DNA of 64,000 bases, taken from an uncultured Candidatus Saccharibacteria bacterium (GTDB taxonomy: Bacteria > Patescibacteriota > Minisyncoccia > Phycocordibacterales > UBA6065). Positions 2,824-63,853 of the stretch are shown here, piece after piece. The stretch's first letter is position 1. Every line of letters starts with the position of its first letter. The stretch spans positions 63,633 to 127,632 of the forward strand of contig CAZBVG010000004.1 of the NCBI GenBank assembly GCA_964495425.1, in the 5' to 3' direction. The translations under genes and the position numbers were made by a program. Under the pieces are notes generated by a model. The model worked only from the letters and a program-made list of their open reading frames with translations. It ran no database searches and was not told the DNA's origin.

Positions 2824-3924
2824 TTATCTGTTCATTGGCATCACGAGATAGGTGAAAGACTTGTCAGACACACCCTTGAGTACCAATGGCTTGTTGGCGC
2901 CGCTTATAGAGAGAACCAGACTATCAGCATCAATCGACTGGAAACAATCTGCAATGTACTTATGATTGAAGTTTATATCTACATCCTGGCCAGTAATACT
3001 TGAATCAAGTGAGTTGGTGTACTCCCCCACATCACTATTTTTTGTTGAAATCACAAAACTCTTCTTTGAAGGAAGTGCTTTTACGTTTACTTGATTAAAC
3101 TTATCTGAAAATACGTTTGAAGTTTTAAGTGAATCTACAAAATCCTGCTTCAAAATAACAACCTCGGTAACAAATGACTTTGGAATGATCTGTCGATAAT
3201 CCGGGAATGTCGCATCGATTACTCGAGACATCAAATAAATGTCTTTTGATTCAAAAGCAATCTGATTTTTATCAAAAAGCACTTTAATATCATCCGAAAG
3301 ACCATCGAGAGTGCGAATTATATCAGCAACATTCTTTGCTGGAACAATAACCGACGGAAAATCTATCGAATCCTTAACCTTCACCCTCTTTTCTGCGAGT
3401 CTAAACGAATCTGTCGACACAAATACCAAGTCAGAATCTTCCTTAAATACATAGACGCTTGAGAGTTCAGGCTTTACTGTAGACAAAGAAGCGCTATAAA
3501 CAACAGATTTGAAACCTTTTACGAGAAGTTTTGGGCTAATCTCGATTATCTTATTAGTTTCCAGCTTTGGAATTGAAGGGAAATCATCAGTTGGGAATGT
3601 TTTGATGAGAGTTGTGTTAGTTGAGGTTGAAATAACCACATTTCCATCCTTAGACTCAAGAGTAATATTCTTTTCCTTTGGAAGTCCGGCAAGAAGAGAG
3701 CTGATAACACCTCCCTGAAGGGCAATTTCACCCTCCTGTTCAACTTTAGCTGGAATCTTGATCTCTATACCACAATCAAGATTTGTCGCTCGTATAACGA
3801 GAGAATTTTTAGACGCGGATAAATTAATACATGAAAGAATTGGTAACGAAAGATTCTTACCTGTTAGACGATCAGCCTTTGAAATTCCTTCAATCAGTTT
3901 TTCTTTGATGCATTCGATTTTCAT
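2824..3924 (-). CDS. dnaN: DNA polymerase III beta sliding clamp
   Basis: 366 aa, typical three-domain clamp length, immediately downstream of dnaA. N-terminus MKIECIKEKLIEGI is typical. Confidence 0.9.
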   Translation of the reverse strand: MKIECIKEKLIEGISKADRLTGKNLSLPILSCINLSASKNSLVIRATNLDCGIEIKIPAKVEQEGEIALQGGVISSLLAGLPKEKNITLESKDGNVVISTSTNTTLIKTFPTDDFPSIPKLETNKIIEISPKLLVKGFKSVVYSASLSTVKPELSSVYVFKEDSDLVFVSTDSFRLAEKRVKVKDSIDFPSVIVPAKNVADIIRTLDGLSDDIKVLFDKNQIAFESKDIYLMSRVIDATFPDYRQIIPKSFVTEVVILKQDFVDSLKTSNVFSDKFNQVNVKALPSKKSFVISTKNSDVGEYTNSLDSSITGQDVDINFNHKYIADCFQSIDADSLVLSISGANKPLVLKGVSDKSFTYLVMPMNR

Positions 3925-4154
3925 GTTCCTAGTATATCTTTATATTTATTCTATTAAGAAGACTATTACTTCTAATAGCAGTGTGAATATGTGAATAACT
4001 TTTTATATGGCTTTGTATAAGGATATTCCATATATTTTTTCTAAAGATTCTGTGGATAATCACAGATCTATTTTGAACAACATATTCACAAAGTGAACTT
4101 ATACCCCTTTTTATCCACACTTCCCCACGTCTTGTCCCCAACAAACTAACACAC
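3925..4154. promoter_or_regulatory. Candidate oriC in the AT-rich dnaA-dnaN spacer
   Basis: Perfect DnaA boxes TGTGGATAA at 4051-4059 and TTATCCACA at 4111-4119. The 230 bp spacer is AT-rich. Confidence 0.5.
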
Positions 4155-5498
4155 TTATGAGATGAGAGATCGTATATGATTTACTTCCTGAAGAAGTACC
4201 TGGTTGGACTTTATCTCCTCTTTAACCTTTTCGCAAGAATGAATAACTGTCGTATGATCACGACCTCCAAGTTTCTCACCAATAGATGGGTAAGAAATAT
4301 TCATATCCTCTCGTAAAAGATACATGATTACCTGTCGTGGTTTCACCACTTCTTTCTTTCGTGTCTTCTCGTAAATGTTGTTTTCCTCAATATTATAGAA
4401 ATCTGAGACGATTTTAACGACATCTTTAATAGAAATAAGTTTCTTTGGCTTTGCACTATTCTTTATGAGGTTTTTTATCTCTAAAATGTTAAGTTCTCTT
4501 CCTCGAACTTGAGTTTGCATCACAATAGAGTTGATAATTCCCTCTAATTCTCGAATATTTCCATCAACTGAGCTTGCAAGAAAATCTAAAATGTCAGATG
4601 AAAGACCAACATTTTGCTTGGCAAGCTTATTTTTAAGGATAATTAAGCGTGATTCATAGTCTGGAGCTGCAACATCTACAATCATTCCTGATCCAAGACG
4701 AGATTTAATACGATCCTCGAGGTCAGGCATGTGGTTAGGATGCTGATCTGAAGAACAGATAAGCTGCTTATTATTTTCCTTGAGAGTATTGAAGAGGTGG
4801 AAGAACTCTTCTTGTGACTTTTCCTTGCTTGAGAAGAATTGTACGTCATCCATGATGAGTACATCATACTTTCGATATTTTTCTTTGAACTGATTCGCCT
4901 TACCAAGCTGAAGTGAATTCATAAAATCAACCGCAAAACGCTCAGAAGTCACATAATATACTTTCTTTGAAGGATCTTTTGCTTTAATATGATTCCCTAC
5001 CGCCTGCATAAGGTGAGTTTTACCTCGTCCTGTACCTCCGTAAATATAAAGAGGGTTATAAGCTATACCAGGATTTTTGATCACCGCCTGTGCAGCTGCG
5101 TGAGCAAGTTCATTAAATGGCCCAACCACAAAGGTATCAAAGGTATATTTAGGATTGAGGTTGTCATCCTTGCTTACATAGAACTCCTGAAGAGGTAATT
5201 CATATACGGGAGCAGCTTTCTGCTCAATTTCAAGAGGAGCTTTTCGTTCTTGATTTTTAGAAATAACATATTCAAGCGCGCGGACGTCGTTTCCAAAATC
5301 TCGAAGGTGCTTCAATATAGTTTTGTGAAATTTGCTCGAGAGCCACTCTTTTGCAAAGACACTTGGTACTGCCACATAGATAACACCATCATCCTGTTTG
5401 TGGATATATGTGTCTTTAAACCACATATTGAAGTTCGCCTTCGAGACCTGAAGCTCAACTGTCCCCAAAACGCTATCCCACAATTTTTTTGTATCCAT
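4155..5498 (-). CDS. dnaA: Chromosomal replication initiator DnaA
   Basis: AAA+ Walker A GGTGRGKTHL, Walker B-like DDVQF, and a C-terminal domain IV DNA-binding region (HTTVIHSCEKV). Confidence 0.95.
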   Translation of the reverse strand: MDTKKLWDSVLGTVELQVSKANFNMWFKDTYIHKQDDGVIYVAVPSVFAKEWLSSKFHKTILKHLRDFGNDVRALEYVISKNQERKAPLEIEQKAAPVYELPLQEFYVSKDDNLNPKYTFDTFVVGPFNELAHAAAQAVIKNPGIAYNPLYIYGGTGRGKTHLMQAVGNHIKAKDPSKKVYYVTSERFAVDFMNSLQLGKANQFKEKYRKYDVLIMDDVQFFSSKEKSQEEFFHLFNTLKENNKQLICSSDQHPNHMPDLEDRIKSRLGSGMIVDVAAPDYESRLIILKNKLAKQNVGLSSDILDFLASSVDGNIRELEGIINSIVMQTQVRGRELNILEIKNLIKNSAKPKKLISIKDVVKIVSDFYNIEENNIYEKTRKKEVVKPRQVIMYLLREDMNISYPSIGEKLGGRDHTTVIHSCEKVKEEIKSNQVLLQEVNHIRSLIS

Positions 5499-5801: not shown

Positions 5802-6128
5802 ATGCTCGCAAAGAAAGATCGGCTTACAGTCACAGATTTGGAAGCCCTCTCTCGTGGAATAAGCGTCTTTTCGACGCTTATTTCGTTGAGGTATTGTGAG
5901 GCACCCTCGCTCAAGTTTGCTGTATCAGTATCTAAAAAGGTTGCACCAAGCGCAGTGCTTCGTAATAGAATCCGTCGCCGAACTTACTCTATCGTGCAAA
6001 AATTGATGCCGCAGATTCAAAAGAAGGCGTTTATTATGCTTATGCCTAAAAAAGAGTTCGCGGGTAAGCCAATAGCTGAACTTGAGGTGGAAATGAAAGG
6101 AATATTCAGTAAGGCGCACCTTCTGTAG
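5802..6128 (+). CDS. rnpA: RNase P protein component
   Basis: 108 aa with the VSKKV..AV.RNRIRRR motif, between rpmH and yidC. Confidence 0.85.
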   Translation: MLAKKDRLTVTDLEALSRGISVFSTLISLRYCEAPSLKFAVSVSKKVAPSAVLRNRIRRRTYSIVQKLMPQIQKKAFIMLMPKKEFAGKPIAELEVEMKGIFSKAHLL

Positions 6129-6190: not shown

Positions 6191-6928
6191 ATGCACTATC
6201 TATATACAACCTTTATTTATCATCCGCTCTATAATGGCCTTATTCTCCTTGGAGACCTGCTTCCCTTCCTTGATGCGGGTATTCTCATTATTATCTTTAC
6301 TATCATCGTAAAACTCATTCTTTTTCCGCTTTCAAAGAAGGCGGTGCGAACACAAGCAACCATGAAGCTTGTTGAGCCAGAGTTGAGAGCAATTAAAGAA
6401 AAGTTTAAAGATAACAAGCAGGCACAGGCGGTAGAGACGATGAAGTTGTATAAAGAGAAGCAGATTAACCCATTTTCAAGCATCTTCCTTCTCTTGATAC
6501 AGCTCCCTATCATCTTTGCTTTGTATAAAGTTTTCTCGGCAAGTAATTTTTCTGCGGTTAATACTGACATCTTATATTCTTTTGTGAAAGTCCCTGAGCA
6601 TATAAGCACAATGTTTTTGGGTCTTATAGATGTAACCCAAAAGAGTTTTATTTTAGCTATATTGGCAGCCATTTCTCAGTATTTTCAGATTAAATTTTCC
6701 GCACCAAATTTACCTCCTAAGTCTGAAAATGGATCATTTCAGGATGATTTCGCACGAAACATGCATGTTCAAATGAAGTACGTATTCCCTATTATGATCT
6801 TGTTCATTTCATATAACGTTGCTGCAGCTCTTGCGATCTACTGGGTGACCTCAAACCTCTTTATGATTGGCCAGGAGCTCTATATTCGAAAGCAGATGGC
6901 TCGTGAGCGTTTGGCGGCAGGTAAGTAA
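6191..6928 (+). CDS. yidC: Membrane protein insertase YidC (short Oxa1-type)
   Basis: 245 aa polytopic protein with a conserved KLILFPL..K...Q..M..L.PE....KEK region, in the rpmH-rnpA-yidC arrangement. Confidence 0.85.
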   Translation: MHYLYTTFIYHPLYNGLILLGDLLPFLDAGILIIIFTIIVKLILFPLSKKAVRTQATMKLVEPELRAIKEKFKDNKQAQAVETMKLYKEKQINPFSSIFLLLIQLPIIFALYKVFSASNFSAVNTDILYSFVKVPEHISTMFLGLIDVTQKSFILAILAAISQYFQIKFSAPNLPPKSENGSFQDDFARNMHVQMKYVFPIMILFISYNVAAALAIYWVTSNLFMIGQELYIRKQMARERLAAGK

Positions 6929-29375: not shown

Positions 29376-30323
29376 TTGTCTGCTATAATATTGTGCGACA
29401 TGGCATCTCTTAAAGATTTAAAAACACAATTTCTTGAATACACCGAGATAGAAAAAGGTCGTAGCTTAAATACGGTCCAGAATTATGACCGTTATCTTAC
29501 CCGTTTCCTGGCTTTTCTTAAAAAAGATTTCCCTACAGATATAACAGACTCATCGGTGCGTGAATTTCGCCTCTGGCTTAACCGTCAGGCTACGGGAAAT
29601 AACAAAAAGACGGGAGATACGCTCAAAAAGAAGACGCAAAACTATTATTTGATTGCTTTGCGAGCGTTTTTGAAATATTTGGCGCGGCAAAATGTAAAAT
29701 CGATGCCGCCAGAGCGAATTGAACTTGCAAAAGTTGGCGAACGACATATTGAGTTCATGTCGAATGAAGAATTGCATCGACTTCTTGAATCGCCCAAGGG
29801 AAATGATCTTAAATCGCTGCGCGATCGGGCAATTTTGCAAATGCTTTTCTCGACAGGACTTCGTGTCTCCGAGCTCTGTTCCCTCTCGAGAGATATTGAT
29901 CTGTCTGCGGATGAAATCTCTATTAGAGGAAAAGGTGACAAGGTGCGAGTGGTTTTCCTCTCGGACGAGGCAAAAAAAGCTACGAAGGCTTATGTAGATA
30001 AGAGAGATGATGTCGACGATTCGCTTTTTGTGAAGGTAGCAGTAGAAACACGTAACAAGGGCGAATCAATGCCACTTACACGTCGTTCTGTAGAACGAAT
30101 TGTGAAACACTACGCAACCAAGGCCGGCATTATGTCGAAAAAGGTTACACCGCACGTTATTCGTCACTCATTTGCAACAGATTTACTCTCAAACGGTGCG
30201 GATTTGCGCTCAGTACAGGCATTACTCGGCCATGCAAACATTGGAACAACACAGATATATACTCACGTAACGGATAAACATCTGCGGAATATTCACAAAC
30301 AGTTTCACAATAAGAAGAAGTAA
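29376..30323 (+). CDS. Tyrosine recombinase XerC/XerD family
   Basis: C-terminal catalytic region HVIRHSFATDLL...LGHANIGTTQIYTHV with R..H..R..Y residues. Confidence 0.85.
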   Translation: MSAIILCDMASLKDLKTQFLEYTEIEKGRSLNTVQNYDRYLTRFLAFLKKDFPTDITDSSVREFRLWLNRQATGNNKKTGDTLKKKTQNYYLIALRAFLKYLARQNVKSMPPERIELAKVGERHIEFMSNEELHRLLESPKGNDLKSLRDRAILQMLFSTGLRVSELCSLSRDIDLSADEISIRGKGDKVRVVFLSDEAKKATKAYVDKRDDVDDSLFVKVAVETRNKGESMPLTRRSVERIVKHYATKAGIMSKKVTPHVIRHSFATDLLSNGADLRSVQALLGHANIGTTQIYTHVTDKHLRNIHKQFHNKKK

Positions 30324-30362: not shown

Positions 30363-31160
30363 ATGAAAATCATTTCGTGGAACGTAAACGGTATACGAGC
30401 GGTGCATAAAAAGGGACTTTTTCTCCCTTTTATTGATAAATACAAGCCTGACATTCTTTGTTTACAAGAAACCAAGGCAGAACAAGGTCAGGCAGAGATT
30501 GATCTTAAGCTGTATGAGGAGTATTGGAATTCCGCTACCAAAAAGGGTTATTCAGGTACCGCTATTTTTACCAAAGAAAAGCCGATTGCGGTGTTGAACG
30601 GTATTCCAGAGCATATTGCTGAAAAATATGGCTTAAAAGCTGATGATTATGGCGATCCGCGTACTGAAGGGCGTGTTATTGCAGCTGAATTTAAGGATTT
30701 CTATGTAGTTACCGTCTATACGCCCAACGCAAAAGATGATTTGACTCGTGTTTCCCTTCGCCATAAGCAGTGGGATCCCGCTTTTTTGGCATATTGTAAG
30801 GAGCTTGATAAGAAAAAGCCGGTTATTTTCTGCGGAGACCTCAATGTTGCTCATACTCCTGATGATTTGGCTCGACCAAAGGAGAATGAAGGCATGAAAG
30901 GTTTCACCGAGGAAGAGCGTGAAGGATTCGATAACATCATCAAGGCAGGATTCGTAGATTCATTTAGATTATTTAAAAAAGGAAATGGTTTTTATACATG
31001 GTGGTCGCACTTTGCAAATGCACGCGCGAGAAATGTTGGTTGGAGAATTGATTACATTTTAGTGTCAAAAAAATTAGAGAAAAAAATAAAATCTGCGGAG
31101 ATTTTGCCGGAAGTGTTAGGATCTGATCATTGTCCCGTTTCTCTAGAAATCGCTTTGTAG
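30363..31160 (+). CDS. xth: Exodeoxyribonuclease III (AP endonuclease)
   Basis: MKIISWNVNGIRA, the QETK motif, and a C-terminal SDHCPV. Confidence 0.9.
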   Translation: MKIISWNVNGIRAVHKKGLFLPFIDKYKPDILCLQETKAEQGQAEIDLKLYEEYWNSATKKGYSGTAIFTKEKPIAVLNGIPEHIAEKYGLKADDYGDPRTEGRVIAAEFKDFYVVTVYTPNAKDDLTRVSLRHKQWDPAFLAYCKELDKKKPVIFCGDLNVAHTPDDLARPKENEGMKGFTEEEREGFDNIIKAGFVDSFRLFKKGNGFYTWWSHFANARARNVGWRIDYILVSKKLEKKIKSAEILPEVLGSDHCPVSLEIAL

Positions 31161-31171
31161 AGCCACGAAAA

Positions 31172-31202
31172 GAATGTCCTTTATAAAGGACATTTTTATT
31201 TT
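31172..31202. terminator. Terminator after xth
   Basis: aatgtcctttataaaggacatt is a perfect hairpin followed by a T-run. Confidence 0.6.
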
Positions 31203-31234
31203 GAAAATAAATGTAGTTATCCACACATAATGTC

Positions 31235-31625
31235 CTTTACATGTCTTTTATGCTTGATACACTATCTGAGGAAGCGACGGGACTGATCTGCTTCGTGCAG
31301 AGAGGAGCTTCGAAGAATGGTTCTTTACACATAAGTCGGTAATCGTTTAAGGTTTGGTCTCGGGTATCGGGAAGTGGTGCTCAACGTTGTGTGCTCATCA
31401 TTAAGAAGGATGAACATAGATCGTTGAGTGTCATTTAGCCGGCACTCAACTTGGTCCTCAAAGACCTACATCTGAAAAGAGAGCTCCAGCGAGCACAGAT
31501 GTCGCCCCATTTGATAGACGTTTATTTTTTTAAATCGCGTCTCCATCGTGGGATCACGCTCTGTACTCACTAAGCACCCTTTTCTAACCGTCGCGCACTC
31601 GCGGCGGTTTATTGTTTTCAAAATA
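31235..31625 (+). ncRNA. Candidate structured ncRNA of unassigned family; strand tentative
   Basis: ~390 bp ORF-free stretch between convergent genes, with many local helices. One example is CUCAACG...CGUUGAG. It is bounded by the xth terminator and by a plus-strand terminator ccgtcgcgcactcgcggcggtttattgtttt at 31589-31620. Confidence 0.3.
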
Positions 31626-31630
31626 CTAAA

Positions 31631-31652
31631 AAATGGCTCAGTTGAGCCATTT
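31631..31652. terminator. Bidirectional terminator at the cca 3' end
   Basis: aatggctcagttgagccatt flanked by A and T runs. Confidence 0.6.
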
Positions 31653-31655
31653 TTT

Positions 31656-33161
31656 CTATTTTACATTATGCTTTCCACGTATTTTTGCGAGCTCTTCCTC
31701 CTCGGCTTGCGCCTTCTTTTCCTTCCCTATCGCTGCTAGCTTGTTGAGCTCTACATCACTGAGTGCCTGTAACGCGACAACTCGGCCGGTAAGGTATTCC
31801 TTGGTATTGAGTTTCGGATCCTCGAGTACTTCTTCCATCAAGGCATTCAGTATAAGTCCAACTTTTGGCCCGGGAGACATTTTTGTTACCTCCATGACTT
31901 CTTTGCCATCGATTTTAAGCATTCCTACGCTTATAGGATCGCGCAATGCCTCCTCAATCATGGATTTATACTTTCGGAGGCGGTACGGGCTCTCCTTGGG
32001 CCTTCCAGTGCCTATTCGGTCACATATTCGTACGCTCATGAGGTCCCAAATGTGCTCCTTTCCTACATTTGCAATCATGCGACGAACTGCTGAGAGTGTA
32101 ATTTGTTCGGTATCTGAGAAAAACATGTGCCAGCGGACAAGTTTCACAACAATGTCCACTGTTTTTCCTGGAAAATTGAGGTTTTTCAACACTTTTTCGG
32201 TCATTCGCGCTCCAACTACCTCATGGCCGTAAAACGTGTATTGGTTGGTTTCACGTGAAAACCTGCGGGTTGCCGGCTTACCTATATCATGAAATAGAGC
32301 CGCAAGACGGATCTCGAGCGGATATTTTTTGTCTGCAGCATGTTGAAGGCTACGAAGAAGATGCTCCCATACATCATATGAGTGGGCCTGTGTCTGCTCT
32401 ACCCCATATCCCTCCTCAAGTTCCTTTGCGATAAAAGGAATAACGCCGAGTTCTCTGCAGAGTACGAGGGCGTTCATAGGCGCATCTGACATGAGAATTC
32501 GTACAAATTCATCACGAATTCGCTCCTTGGCTATGTGTTCAAGGAGTTTTGAGTGAGTTTTGAGGGCCTCAAGGGTGCTTTTTTCGATAGCGAAATCAAG
32601 TTCTGCGGCTATGCGAATAGCGCGCATGATACGTAAAGCGTCTTCTGAAAGGCGCTCATGCGCATCCCCTACGGTGCGGATAACCCCCTCTTTGAGGTCC
32701 TTTTCTCCCTCAAAGAGATCGGTAATGTTTCCCGTGAAACCACCATTTTTAGCCGTTTTTTCGATTTTGAGAGCTAGAGCGTTAATGGTGAAGTCCCTTC
32801 GTTTCAAGTCATCCTCTATTTTGGTGCTAAAGGACACCTTATCTGGGCGTCTTTTATCCGTATAGTCTGATTCAACACGGAATGGTGTCACCTCAATTAC
32901 TTTGAGGCGTTCATCTTTGGCTTCATCGAATACTACTCCCACGGTTCCAAATGAGTTTTCGTAAAAGGTGTGCGTAAAGGTGGCTTGAATCTGTTCGGGT
33001 GTGGCGTCTGTTGTGACGTCCCAATCCTTCGGTTCTCGGCCTAGCAAAAGATCACGCACGCATCCCCCTACTAAATATGCCTGGAAGCCAGCTTTTTCGA
33101 GCTCGATGGTTACATGTGAAACTTCGGATGGAATATCAAGCGTGAGAGGTTTTTTTGACAT
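31656..33161 (-). CDS. cca: CCA-adding tRNA nucleotidyltransferase with HD domain
   Basis: The Pol-beta NT motif LVGGCVRDLLLGREPKDWD and the HD motif LFHDIGKP. Confidence 0.85.
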   Translation of the reverse strand: MSKKPLTLDIPSEVSHVTIELEKAGFQAYLVGGCVRDLLLGREPKDWDVTTDATPEQIQATFTHTFYENSFGTVGVVFDEAKDERLKVIEVTPFRVESDYTDKRRPDKVSFSTKIEDDLKRRDFTINALALKIEKTAKNGGFTGNITDLFEGEKDLKEGVIRTVGDAHERLSEDALRIMRAIRIAAELDFAIEKSTLEALKTHSKLLEHIAKERIRDEFVRILMSDAPMNALVLCRELGVIPFIAKELEEGYGVEQTQAHSYDVWEHLLRSLQHAADKKYPLEIRLAALFHDIGKPATRRFSRETNQYTFYGHEVVGARMTEKVLKNLNFPGKTVDIVVKLVRWHMFFSDTEQITLSAVRRMIANVGKEHIWDLMSVRICDRIGTGRPKESPYRLRKYKSMIEEALRDPISVGMLKIDGKEVMEVTKMSPGPKVGLILNALMEEVLEDPKLNTKEYLTGRVVALQALSDVELNKLAAIGKEKKAQAEEEELAKIRGKHNVK

Positions 33162-34407: not shown

Positions 34408-34439
34408 CATATGCAAAAGGCGCCAAGGGGCGCTTTTTG

Positions 34440-34754
34440 CTTTCAAGGCTGTGCTGTCTTTAACAATGAGTGTCTTTTGAAACATTTTTTATCTCTCGTA
34501 CGTATAAAATAATTCTAAAAAAGTGAATAGAAATAAAGGTATTTTATAAAACTGTGGATAACTCTGTGGATTGTGTTTAAAAGACAGGTTTTTGGACAAG
34601 GCAAATTCAGTGTCTTTTGTCCTTAGTGTCGCTTAATGAAGCCATGTATTGACATTTTGCTATTAAAACTTAGAAATCCACAGTTTTATGCCCAAGAACT
34701 CCTTAGGTGTGGGTTCTTTAGGTTATTTTTATCTCTTTTTGCCATGCTGTAGCG
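34440..34754. promoter_or_regulatory. AT-rich region with DnaA boxes upstream of the yraN-like gene
   Basis: Perfect TGTGGATAA at 34554-34562, adjacent TGTGGATTG at 34566-34574, and an ATCCACAG box at 34675-34682. Confidence 0.4.
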
Positions 34755-63598: not shown

Positions 63599-63853
63599 TT
63601 AGCCTGTTGCGAGAATCACCCAAATCAGTGCAAATATAAGAAAGACTGCTGTACCGAGGATGAATCGGTATGCCGGTTTTACTATTCGCTGTGTCGCTAG
63701 TCGAATACTTAGGCTCATAACGACAAAGAATGTCCACGCAAACAGAAAGTCGTGCCATGTCCAGTTCCAACCATCAACAAAGGTATTGCCGAGAAGGGGA
63801 ATGATAAGGGCAGCTGCTGACCACAGCATGATTTTTACAATTGGTTTTTTCAT
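63599..63853 (-). CDS. Small membrane protein
   Basis: 84 aa with two TM helices. Confidence 0.35.
   Translation of the reverse strand: MKKPIVKIMLWSAAALIIPLLGNTFVDGWNWTWHDFLFAWTFFVVMSLSIRLATQRIVKPAYRFILGTAVFLIFALIWVILATG

Follow-up and report, generated by a model that had tools for sequence, protein, structure and literature searches.

A predicted structured RNA gene with a conserved DnaA-box promoter between xth and cca in Paceibacteria

The raiA motif, ROOL, OLE, and GOLLD RNAs are stand-alone, lineage-restricted non-coding RNAs (ncRNAs) of a few hundred nucleotides (nt) with secondary structures that are supported by covariation. A locus that shares these properties is described here: the spacer between the convergent genes xth and cca in a 64,000-nt stretch of DNA (hereafter the window; positions 63,633–127,632 of contig CAZBVG010000004.1, assembly GCA_964495425.1) from an uncultured bacterium deposited as Candidatus Saccharibacteria. 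An initial annotation, made by reading the sequence alone, had listed this spacer as a candidate for an unassigned structured ncRNA. We consider it probable that the spacer holds an autonomous gene for a stable, structured ncRNA outside the described families. The window-family RNA has no match in sequence or structure to raiA, ROOL, OLE, or GOLLD in Rfam 15, is simpler than these (mostly consecutive hairpins) and much faster-evolving, and is tied to a fixed chromosomal position and a DnaA-box promoter.

Among housekeeping RNAs, the diverged RNase P RNAs found in the candidate phyla radiation (CPR) offer one comparison. In 10 of 35 circular, complete CPR genomes, no RNase P RNA was found at default Rfam thresholds, and lowering the RF00010 threshold brought out class-A RNAs in which many features are conserved (Lui et al., 2021; PMC8172020). 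The published forms lack the peripheral helices P13, P14, P16, and P17, and a few lack P12 or most of P15, with the core being kept (PMC8172020). The window RNA shares with them the host radiation, a similar size, and the escape from default Rfam thresholds, and the window carries rnpA; unlike them, it has neither the conserved regions CR-I and CR-V nor a P4-type pseudoknot, its ends do not pair, and it gave no sub-threshold model match. A second comparison is with 6S RNA and Ms1, which likewise keep their structure while the sequence drifts, and with which the window RNA shares a probably abundant and stable nature and an irregular helix with an A/U-rich open region. Unlike in 6S RNA and Ms1, this open region is a terminal loop rather than a central bubble, and the window RNA is multi-domain rather than a single rod.

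At the DNA level, the Escherichia coli dnaA and nrdAB promoters, datA and DARS, and the Bacillus subtilis DnaA-box clusters all carry the box TTATCCACA outside the chromosomal origin (oriC), as does the present locus, where the box stands next to a promoter. As with other extra-origin clusters, a second box cluster lies nearby and the locus is origin-proximal. As far as we know, such sites elsewhere either regulate protein-coding genes or function solely as DNA elements. Unlike at those sites, the box described here is phased with the promoter of a structured ncRNA, and the arrangement is kept across a whole bacterial class. We know of no structured RNA gene coupled to a DnaA box, and none is described in the literature searched; the same literature contained no CPR ncRNA of this kind, no Parcubacteria 6S RNA, and no DnaA-regulated small RNA (sRNA), apart from the CPR RNase P study mentioned above.

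A conserved putative transcription unit with a DnaA-box promoter

Along the + strand, the order of features is xth, a terminator, a promoter, a body of ~350 nt, and a second terminator. The spacer measures 495 nt (31161–31655), so that the long gap between convergent genes remarked upon in the initial annotation is real. The predicted ncRNA (~31269–31618, + strand) has its 5′ end placed from promoter geometry and its 3′ end from the terminator U-tract, and occurs in a single copy, both in the window and per locus. Its sigma-70-type promoter (31231–31263, + strand) comprises TGTCC and the −35 element TTTACA (31236–31241), a TG extension (31255–31256), and the −10 element TACACT (31258–31263), giving nine of 12 consensus matches and a 16-nt spacer between TTTACA and TACACT. 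A perfect DnaA box, TTATCCACA (31217–31225, + strand), lies 5 nt upstream of TGTCCTTTACA, the word that holds the −35 element and is near-invariant across homologous loci; a second TGTCTTTTA word is located inside the promoter at 31242–31250. The unit ends in an intrinsic terminator (31586–31619, + strand), AACCGUCGCG-CACU-CGCGGCGGUU followed by UAUUGUUUUC; its hairpin spans 31586–31609 and is followed by TATTGTTTTC on the + strand. This terminator, of the form AACCGC...GCGGUUUUUU, is kept family-wide and covaries.

A search with the cca protein, with one genome per species, yielded 80 loci, all from metagenome-assembled genomes of Paceibacterota/Parcubacteria (CPR), with cca identities of 58–87%. 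In nearly all 80, cca is followed by a gap of 300–600 nt that is free of open reading frames (ORFs), and iterated nhmmer searches identified a homologue of the window element in 69 of the 76 usable cca spacers. Full-length similarity is limited to the closest relatives (loci L003–L011 of our set); beyond these, the conserved stretch consists of the promoter and the first ~60 nt of the transcript. The RNA is typically 250–310 nt long in relatives, many homologues measuring ~230–280 nt, compared with ~345 nt in the window subgroup and up to ~450 nt in other subgroups. When metagenome contigs were scanned with the promoter pattern alone (TTATCCACA-N(3–16)-TGTCCTTTACA), at least 120 loci were recovered; the RNA 5′ region lies downstream in 115 of the 120 promoter-selected loci listed, almost all of which are between xth and cca. 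More than 180 related loci carry the unit. In ~10 of them (L091, L095, L122, L129, L140, L155, L174, L191, and L137, with L023 among the genomes), the whole cassette, from the box through the promoter and RNA to the terminator, is reversed relative to its unchanged neighbours; the cassette is thus an autonomous unit, and a 3′ untranslated region (UTR) or an operon-linked leader is ruled out.

The promoter is conserved in its geometry as well as in its words. A TAnAAT-type −10 element stands at 16–18 nt in ~50 of the 64 homologous loci scanned, and CAGA is found at the predicted RNA start in homologues. All 64 genome loci with a mapped promoter have the DnaA box, which is perfect in 51 and has one mismatch in 13. 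The distance from the box to GTCCTTTAC is bimodal, at 3–7 nt (mode 5) or 14–15 nt, in genome and metagenome sets alike. These two classes lie ~10 bp apart, which corresponds to one helical turn and is the pattern expected if a bound protein must face the polymerase or a co-factor. The promoter therefore shows a consensus box at a conserved, helically phased distance, as a member of the DnaA regulon should, and the same consensus box occurs in the dnaA–dnaN spacer of the window. Control of the RNA promoter by DnaA, as read from these sequences, can be regarded as a well-founded inference.

Covariation and fold of the RNA

Compensatory changes indicate that the fold of the RNA is under selection. 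In an alignment of 20 short-form members (A3) to which an RNAalifold structure was applied, 89.0% of cells are paired versus 76.2 ± 0.8% in column shuffles, both partners have changed in 34 of the 49 pairs, and the covariation score of 0.476 compares with 0.238 in shuffles, with none of 500 shuffles reaching the observed value. In slid controls, for which the 3′ partners were displaced by 1–3 columns, pairing fell to 38–52% and the covariation score did not exceed 0.207. The short-form helices comprise a 5′ domain (an AGAAC/GUUCU closing helix, P1, and the P2 hairpin GUCCG-AUAAACCC-CGGAC), a G+C hairpin (P3), a 17-pair run, and the terminator hairpin. The 17-pair run is mostly the long-range outer helix of a central rod, and includes an invariant UGG/CUG (tandem G·U plus G-C). 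When the columns of the short-form alignment were scanned in pairs, no further long-range helix had convincing support. A covariance model built from P3 and the rod of the short form (R1) found 34 genome loci, including 15 outside its seed. The 34 R1-aligned sequences (A6) have a covariation score of 0.516 versus 0.223, and double changes occur in seven of seven P3 pairs and nine of 15 outer-helix pairs, counts that lean towards the structure because A6 was fitted to the R1 model.

For the window subgroup, an alignment of seven sequences (A4) has 86.5% of cells paired versus 75.7% in shuffles, again with none of 500 shuffles reaching the observed value, and double changes in 51 of 100 pairs. 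It supports the hairpin at 31376–31432 together with its enclosing helix, P3, the rod, the apical hairpin at 31516–31542, and the terminator. Covariation in relatives, which the initial annotation had proposed as a check on its candidate, is therefore strong in both alignments. If the same columns are read as the opposite strand, only 76.7% of cells are paired in A3, compared with 89.0% on the + strand, and only 78.7%, compared with 86.5%, in A4, owing to G·U cells (153 in A3 and 76 in A4); the comparison is limited in that the structure itself was derived on the + strand. The G·U bias agrees with the orientation of the promoter and terminator, and points to + as the functional strand. The region folds better than shuffles on both strands (z = −3.2 for + and −4.1 for −); taken together, the fold z-scores obtained range from −3.2 to −4.3.

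In the window, the RNA begins with a 5′ hairpin domain (31269–31326, + strand), the hairpins of which covary in relatives. It ends in the signature GUUCUUU (31320–31326), which is predicted to pair with GAGGAGCU at 31302–31309 and is found in 122 of 174 RNAs on the sense strand versus five of 174 on the antisense strand. The following block (31335–31359, + strand; helices 3–4), GUCGGUAAUCGUUUAAGGUUUGGUC, is near-invariant within the subgroup and forms a predicted small hairpin; because the sequence hardly varies (six of eight pairs never do), this hairpin stays a prediction. Next is a long hairpin specific to the window subgroup (31363–31451, + strand), with a core at 31376–31432 (GGUGCUCAACG...CGUUGAGUGUC) and an enclosing helix (31363–31370 with 31445–31451). 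Of the 26 pairs in helix 6, 12 have changed on both sides, and the proportion of paired cells is 92.7%; helix 5 has double changes in six of nine pairs. P3 (helix 7) is the short G+C hairpin GGUC-CUCAAA-GACC (31453–31466, + strand), which is supported by covariation. The central rod (31474–31584, + strand; helices 8–11) is a domain of ~110 nt in which GAAAAG...CGAGCACAGA (31474–31499) pairs with UCUGUACUC...CUUUUC (31560–31584); it is capped by an apical hairpin (AGACG, 31516–31520, with CGUCU, 31538–31542; + strand) that has a 17-nt A/U-rich loop.

The complementary segments picked out in the initial annotation were borne out in part. CUCAAC...GUUGAG (31380–31428) and GGUC-CUCAAA-GACC (31453–31466) show compensatory changes in relatives. 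The third pair of words, ACAUCUG (31468–31474) and CAGAUGU (31496–31502), exists, but its pairing is unsupported; CACAGA covaries instead with UCUGU at 31560–31568.

Two further observations concern individual hairpins. Within the subgroup-specific domain, GUUGAG(UG) (31423–31430) can pair either with the upstream CUCAAC (31380–31385) or with the downstream CACUCAAC (31443–31450), and the three segments change together in L008 and L009; judging from the sequences, these alternative pairings could represent a conformational switch or a three-strand junction. In short-form homologues, P3 is often a perfect DNA palindrome with a self-complementary centre (GGCC, GCGC, or UGCA) (e.g., L017, L036, L021, L026, L161, and L174). 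Such perfection is not needed by the RNA hairpin and is absent from the window subgroup; the palindrome might serve for loop–loop dimerisation or as a site at the DNA level. A GGCC kissing-loop dimerisation signal was rejected as a feature of the family, being present only in a subset and not in the window subgroup.

Surroundings of the gene

The RNA locus is 27 kb from a probable oriC (3925–4155), which occupies the spacer between dnaA (4155–5498, − strand) and dnaN (2824–3924, − strand), carries DnaA boxes at 3990 (−), 4051 (−), and 4111 (+), and coincides with the minimum of the cumulative GC skew at ~4–8 kb. It is adjoined by rnpA (5802–6128) and yidC (6191–6928); the presence of rnpA, reported in the initial annotation, is confirmed by Pfam.

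A second conserved DnaA-box composite, CCTGTCTTTTAAACACAATCCACAGAGTTATCCACAGTTTTATAAAAT, is located on the other side of cca (34548–34594, − strand), and consists of a perfect box (34553–34561), an imperfect box just upstream, and a further TGTCTTTTA word. According to blastn, it is present in at least 44 cca loci, oriented like cca; it lies ~400–500 nt upstream of cca in many loci, and ~100–130 nt upstream of a tRNA gene in ~10 of the 28 loci listed. This placement upstream of tRNA and cca genes suggests that DnaA may act on those genes too. After the composite, the window has a possible − strand unit of ~120 nt with a terminator at 34433–34420. In several relatives (L012, L048, L049, L019, L061, L079, and L053), parS-like palindromes such as GTTTCACGTGAAA and TGTTACACGTGTAAC occupy the stretch from the RNA terminator to cca, which fits a position near the origin; no parS-like palindrome occurs in the window spacer.

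The word TGTC[CT]TTTA and its complement TAAA[AG]GACA surround the RNA promoter, occurring in the palindrome of the xth terminator and at the −35 element; in many loci, copies of this type also sit between −35 and −10. In the window subgroup they are arranged as a direct repeat, and in many loci as an inverted repeat that stretches from −35 to −10. The spacer contains four of the five exact copies present in the window, the fifth being inside cca at 32828, and L068 carries three copies of the variant ATGTCCGATAG and three more in inverted orientation. These copies look like operator half-sites for some factor. The xth intrinsic terminator itself (31173–31202, + strand; hairpin 31173–31194) is the palindrome AATGTCCTTTA/TAAAGGACATT followed by a T-tract; it holds two copies of TGTCCTTTA, the word that recurs at the RNA promoter, and the palindrome is also found upstream of the DnaA box in many homologous loci.

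Of the flanking genes, xth (30363–31160, + strand) encodes an Exo_endo_phos domain and cca (31656–33161, − strand), the ORF of which, with its stop codon, ends at 31656, encodes PolyA_pol and HD domains (Pfam). The exact xth protein is also present on metagenome contigs of up to 180 kb. A bidirectional terminator hairpin (31628–31655, both strands), directly after the cca stop codon, is assigned to cca and marks the cassette boundary. All of the terminators reported in the initial annotation were found again (31173–31194, 31586–31609, and 31628–31655), and a consensus scan gave four terminator-like sites in 30900–31900 versus 0.8 expected from shuffles. A tyrosine recombinase gene (29376–30323) is located just upstream of xth, and a 14-nt inverted repeat (TATTTTGAAAATAA/TTGTTTTCAAAATA; 31197–31210 and 31612–31625) flanks the window cassette.

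The description of the region as ORF-free stands in that no ORF of 60 or more amino acids (aa) is contained within 31235–31625, but a mechanical 63-aa ORF with a GTG start (31548–31739) begins in the region and crosses two terminators into antisense cca. The longest ORFs internal to the region have 51, 40, and 33 aa. The 40-aa ORF (31451–31573) is shortened in L003 and interrupted by a stop codon in L009, as read by eye, and no ORF is kept between the window and its close relatives according to the ORF list and a reading of the homologue sequences. As for translation in the organism more generally, no Shine–Dalgarno (SD)-like 5-mer is enriched in the 20 nt before the starts of ~57 window ORFs, and the commonest words before start codons are A/T-rich (AATAA and CAATA), which suggests that SD-led initiation may be weak or absent.

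Alternative explanations and proposed role

The Rfam scan that had been proposed for this region was run and returned no match to RNase P RNA, transfer-messenger RNA (tmRNA), 6S RNA, or signal recognition particle (SRP) RNA. At the gathering thresholds of Rfam 15, the window gave four tRNAs only, and 33 homologous loci gave no match to any of the four RNAs. At a permissive E ≤ 10, the segment 31100–31750 gave only terminator-like chance matches and the short-form homologue L017 gave none to these four RNAs; the whole window at E ≤ 5 had no sub-threshold match to them. The covariation-supported folds are composed of local hairpins and one helix closing a simple rod, with the 3′ end being the terminator hairpin. 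The element has what an independent ncRNA gene should have (its own promoter and terminator, no conserved ORF, and compensatory changes), and shows no testable defining feature of any described RNA family; hence, we file it as a new family. The suggestion of an unassigned structured ncRNA is supported by the comparative data, with the unit present in more than 180 loci and in both orientations.

The RNA might instead be a trans-acting base-pairing sRNA that pairs through GUUCUUU or through C-rich single-stranded stretches, a reading to which we give an outside chance. An independent promoter and terminator are typical of sRNAs, GUUCUUU is strand-specific and family-wide, and C-rich motifs of short-form members are located in one hairpin loop as well as in the linker that precedes the terminator. 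Against this, the RNA far exceeds typical seed-based sRNAs in size and in degree of structure, GUUCUUU has a predicted pairing partner, and the apical loop sequence varies between subgroups. The idea that the C-rich motifs target SD sequences (RsaE-like) is weakened because no SD-like 5-mer is enriched upstream of window ORFs. RNAduplex predictions for the whole RNA and its conserved pieces against the 5′ regions of window genes gave no outstanding target, with dnaA being only average. Because the single-stranded sequences vary between subgroups, and there is neither an SD signal nor a target that stands out in the window, regulation by base pairing appears less likely than action through structured domains.

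It is also conceivable, although we think it unlikely, that the locus is mainly a DNA element, namely an extra-oriC DnaA-box cluster like those of B. subtilis or like E. coli datA and DARS, with transcription being secondary. Conservation is far higher in the promoter and DnaA box than in the RNA body, and this faster divergence of the body keeps such an explanation alive; the second conserved composite across cca (34548–34594, in at least 44 loci), the distance of 27 kb from oriC, and the parS-like words in the same spacer of some genomes are also in its favour. However, only a single box stands at the RNA promoter, the compensatory changes and strand-specific G·U pairs point to selection on an RNA fold, and the conserved terminator and −10/−35 geometry argue that the transcript matters. 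The DNA-element and ncRNA readings partly overlap and are not mutually exclusive.

Among housekeeping RNAs, 6S RNA is to our knowledge the one that most often escapes covariance models, and a functional analogue of 6S RNA or Ms1, that is, an abundant RNA-polymerase-binding RNA that tunes global transcription, would be consistent with a sequence that drifts fast while its secondary structure is kept, with the strong conserved promoter, with both RNA ends lying in helices, and with the long irregular helix and its large A/U-rich open loop. We nevertheless hold this to be quite improbable: there is no match to the Rfam 6S or 6S-Flavo families (RF00013 and RF01685) in the sequences searched, the open region is apical rather than an internal bubble flanked by two long helices, the RNA ends are unpaired with each other so that the molecule is not a single rod, and the length range of 250–450 nt and the branched variants differ from 6S RNA.

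The initial annotation had noted that the size of the region would suit RNase P RNA or tmRNA; neither suggestion is supported, given the negative Rfam and ARAGORN results, motif matches at chance, and a hairpin-string architecture. A highly diverged RNase P RNA (rnpB) partnering the RnpA encoded at 5802–6128 has a size of ~350 nt in its favour, along with the presence of rnpA, which means that rnpB must exist somewhere, and the lack of any RNase P RNA detected in the 64-kb window even at E ≤ 5. In addition, in 10 of 35 complete CPR genomes no RNase P RNA passes the default Rfam thresholds, and there are diverged forms, yet these diverged forms are still found with RF00010 and keep their conserved features (PMC8172020). 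The present element and its short-form homologue have no RNaseP_bact_a/b match at E ≤ 10, nor do 33 loci at the gathering score. As had been remarked for the region, the P4 motifs are lacking: across 52 homologues, the best matches to CR-I (GGAAAGUCC) have a mean of 2.83 mismatches versus 2.81 in shuffles, and those to CR-V (ACAGAA..CGGCUUA) 4.92 versus 5.01. The consensus folds lack a P1-type helix joining the ends, a P4 pseudoknot, and a specificity domain of several helices, and many homologues are only ~230–280 nt long. On these grounds, RNase P RNA is not supported as the identity of the element, and we rate it as very improbable. GUUCUU and UCGG.UAAUCG (31320–31346) resemble the 5′ end of B. 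subtilis P RNA; because no model supports the resemblance, it is treated as a coincidence.

A diverged tmRNA or SRP RNA is scarcely credible: the size is compatible with tmRNA and neither RNA was detected in the window, but ARAGORN was negative for tmRNA on the window and on 76 homologous spacers, motifs of the T-arm, CCA end, and SRP domain IV match 52 homologues no better than shuffles, no Rfam match was obtained, the 3′ end is a terminator hairpin unpaired with the 5′ end, and no conserved tag ORF was seen, nor, in the window or its subgroup, a GNRA-capped domain IV. The reading as a long 3′ UTR belonging to xth or cca, or as what is left of a decayed gene, which the initial annotation had kept as its fallback and which the position between two convergent genes would allow, is already refuted by comparative sequence data, since each of the two genes is directly followed by a terminator before the element is reached, a conserved promoter belongs to the element itself, which occurs in both orientations, and there is strong covariation and no coding signal.

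Several points weigh against an autonomous ncRNA gene of a new family. The transcription start, the 3′ end, and the stability of the RNA are predictions. It is unusual for an RNA body to evolve faster than its promoter. The short-form model R1 does not detect the window copy and finds only nine of 100 promoter-selected metagenome loci, so that homology of the window RNA to the wider family rests on the promoter and 5′ region (nhmmer), on synteny, and on shared architecture; R1 was accordingly discarded as proof of RNA-body homology across subgroups, having matched 34 genome loci but not the window copy. From its sequence context, the DnaA box could serve a chromosomal role, such as titration of DnaA, rather than promoter regulation. 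Lastly, the search for canonical rnpB, ssrA, ffs, and ssrS was confined to the window and the homologous loci.

With an autonomous gene for a structured ncRNA as the favoured explanation, the RNA would start near A31269/G31270 and end in the U-tract near 31614–31619, which would leave both ends enclosed in helices, as is the case for stable RNAs. The box would be bound by DnaA, which would modulate transcription, in which case RNA abundance would track replication-initiation status. The RNA is probably an abundant transcript and would act in trans via its structured domains, most likely through protein binding or as a scaffold and not as a catalytic housekeeping RNA or an mRNA, because the conserved features are helices, tandem G·U pairs (in short-form relatives), and one short word rather than long single-stranded seeds. 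As a more speculative proposal, which we put forward tentatively and think possible rather than likely, Paceibacteria may use DnaA to drive a lineage-specific stable RNA and thereby couple stable-RNA synthesis to replication initiation, the RNA representing a new class of cell-cycle-linked riboregulator or ribonucleoprotein scaffold.

CPR bacteria (Patescibacteria) account for a large share of bacterial diversity, and their ncRNAs and gene regulation are scarcely known; Paceibacteria are a major lineage among them, with minimal regulatory repertoires. For annotators, the locus provides a new family to model, as well as a caution against labelling every rnpB-sized orphan RNA of the CPR as a "diverged RNase P RNA." A structured RNA without known relatives that keeps a single chromosomal position throughout a class makes a well-defined object for experiments, and the link that its invariant DnaA-box promoter suggests between the initiation of replication and regulation by RNA, in organisms without most of the classical regulators, can be put to the test.

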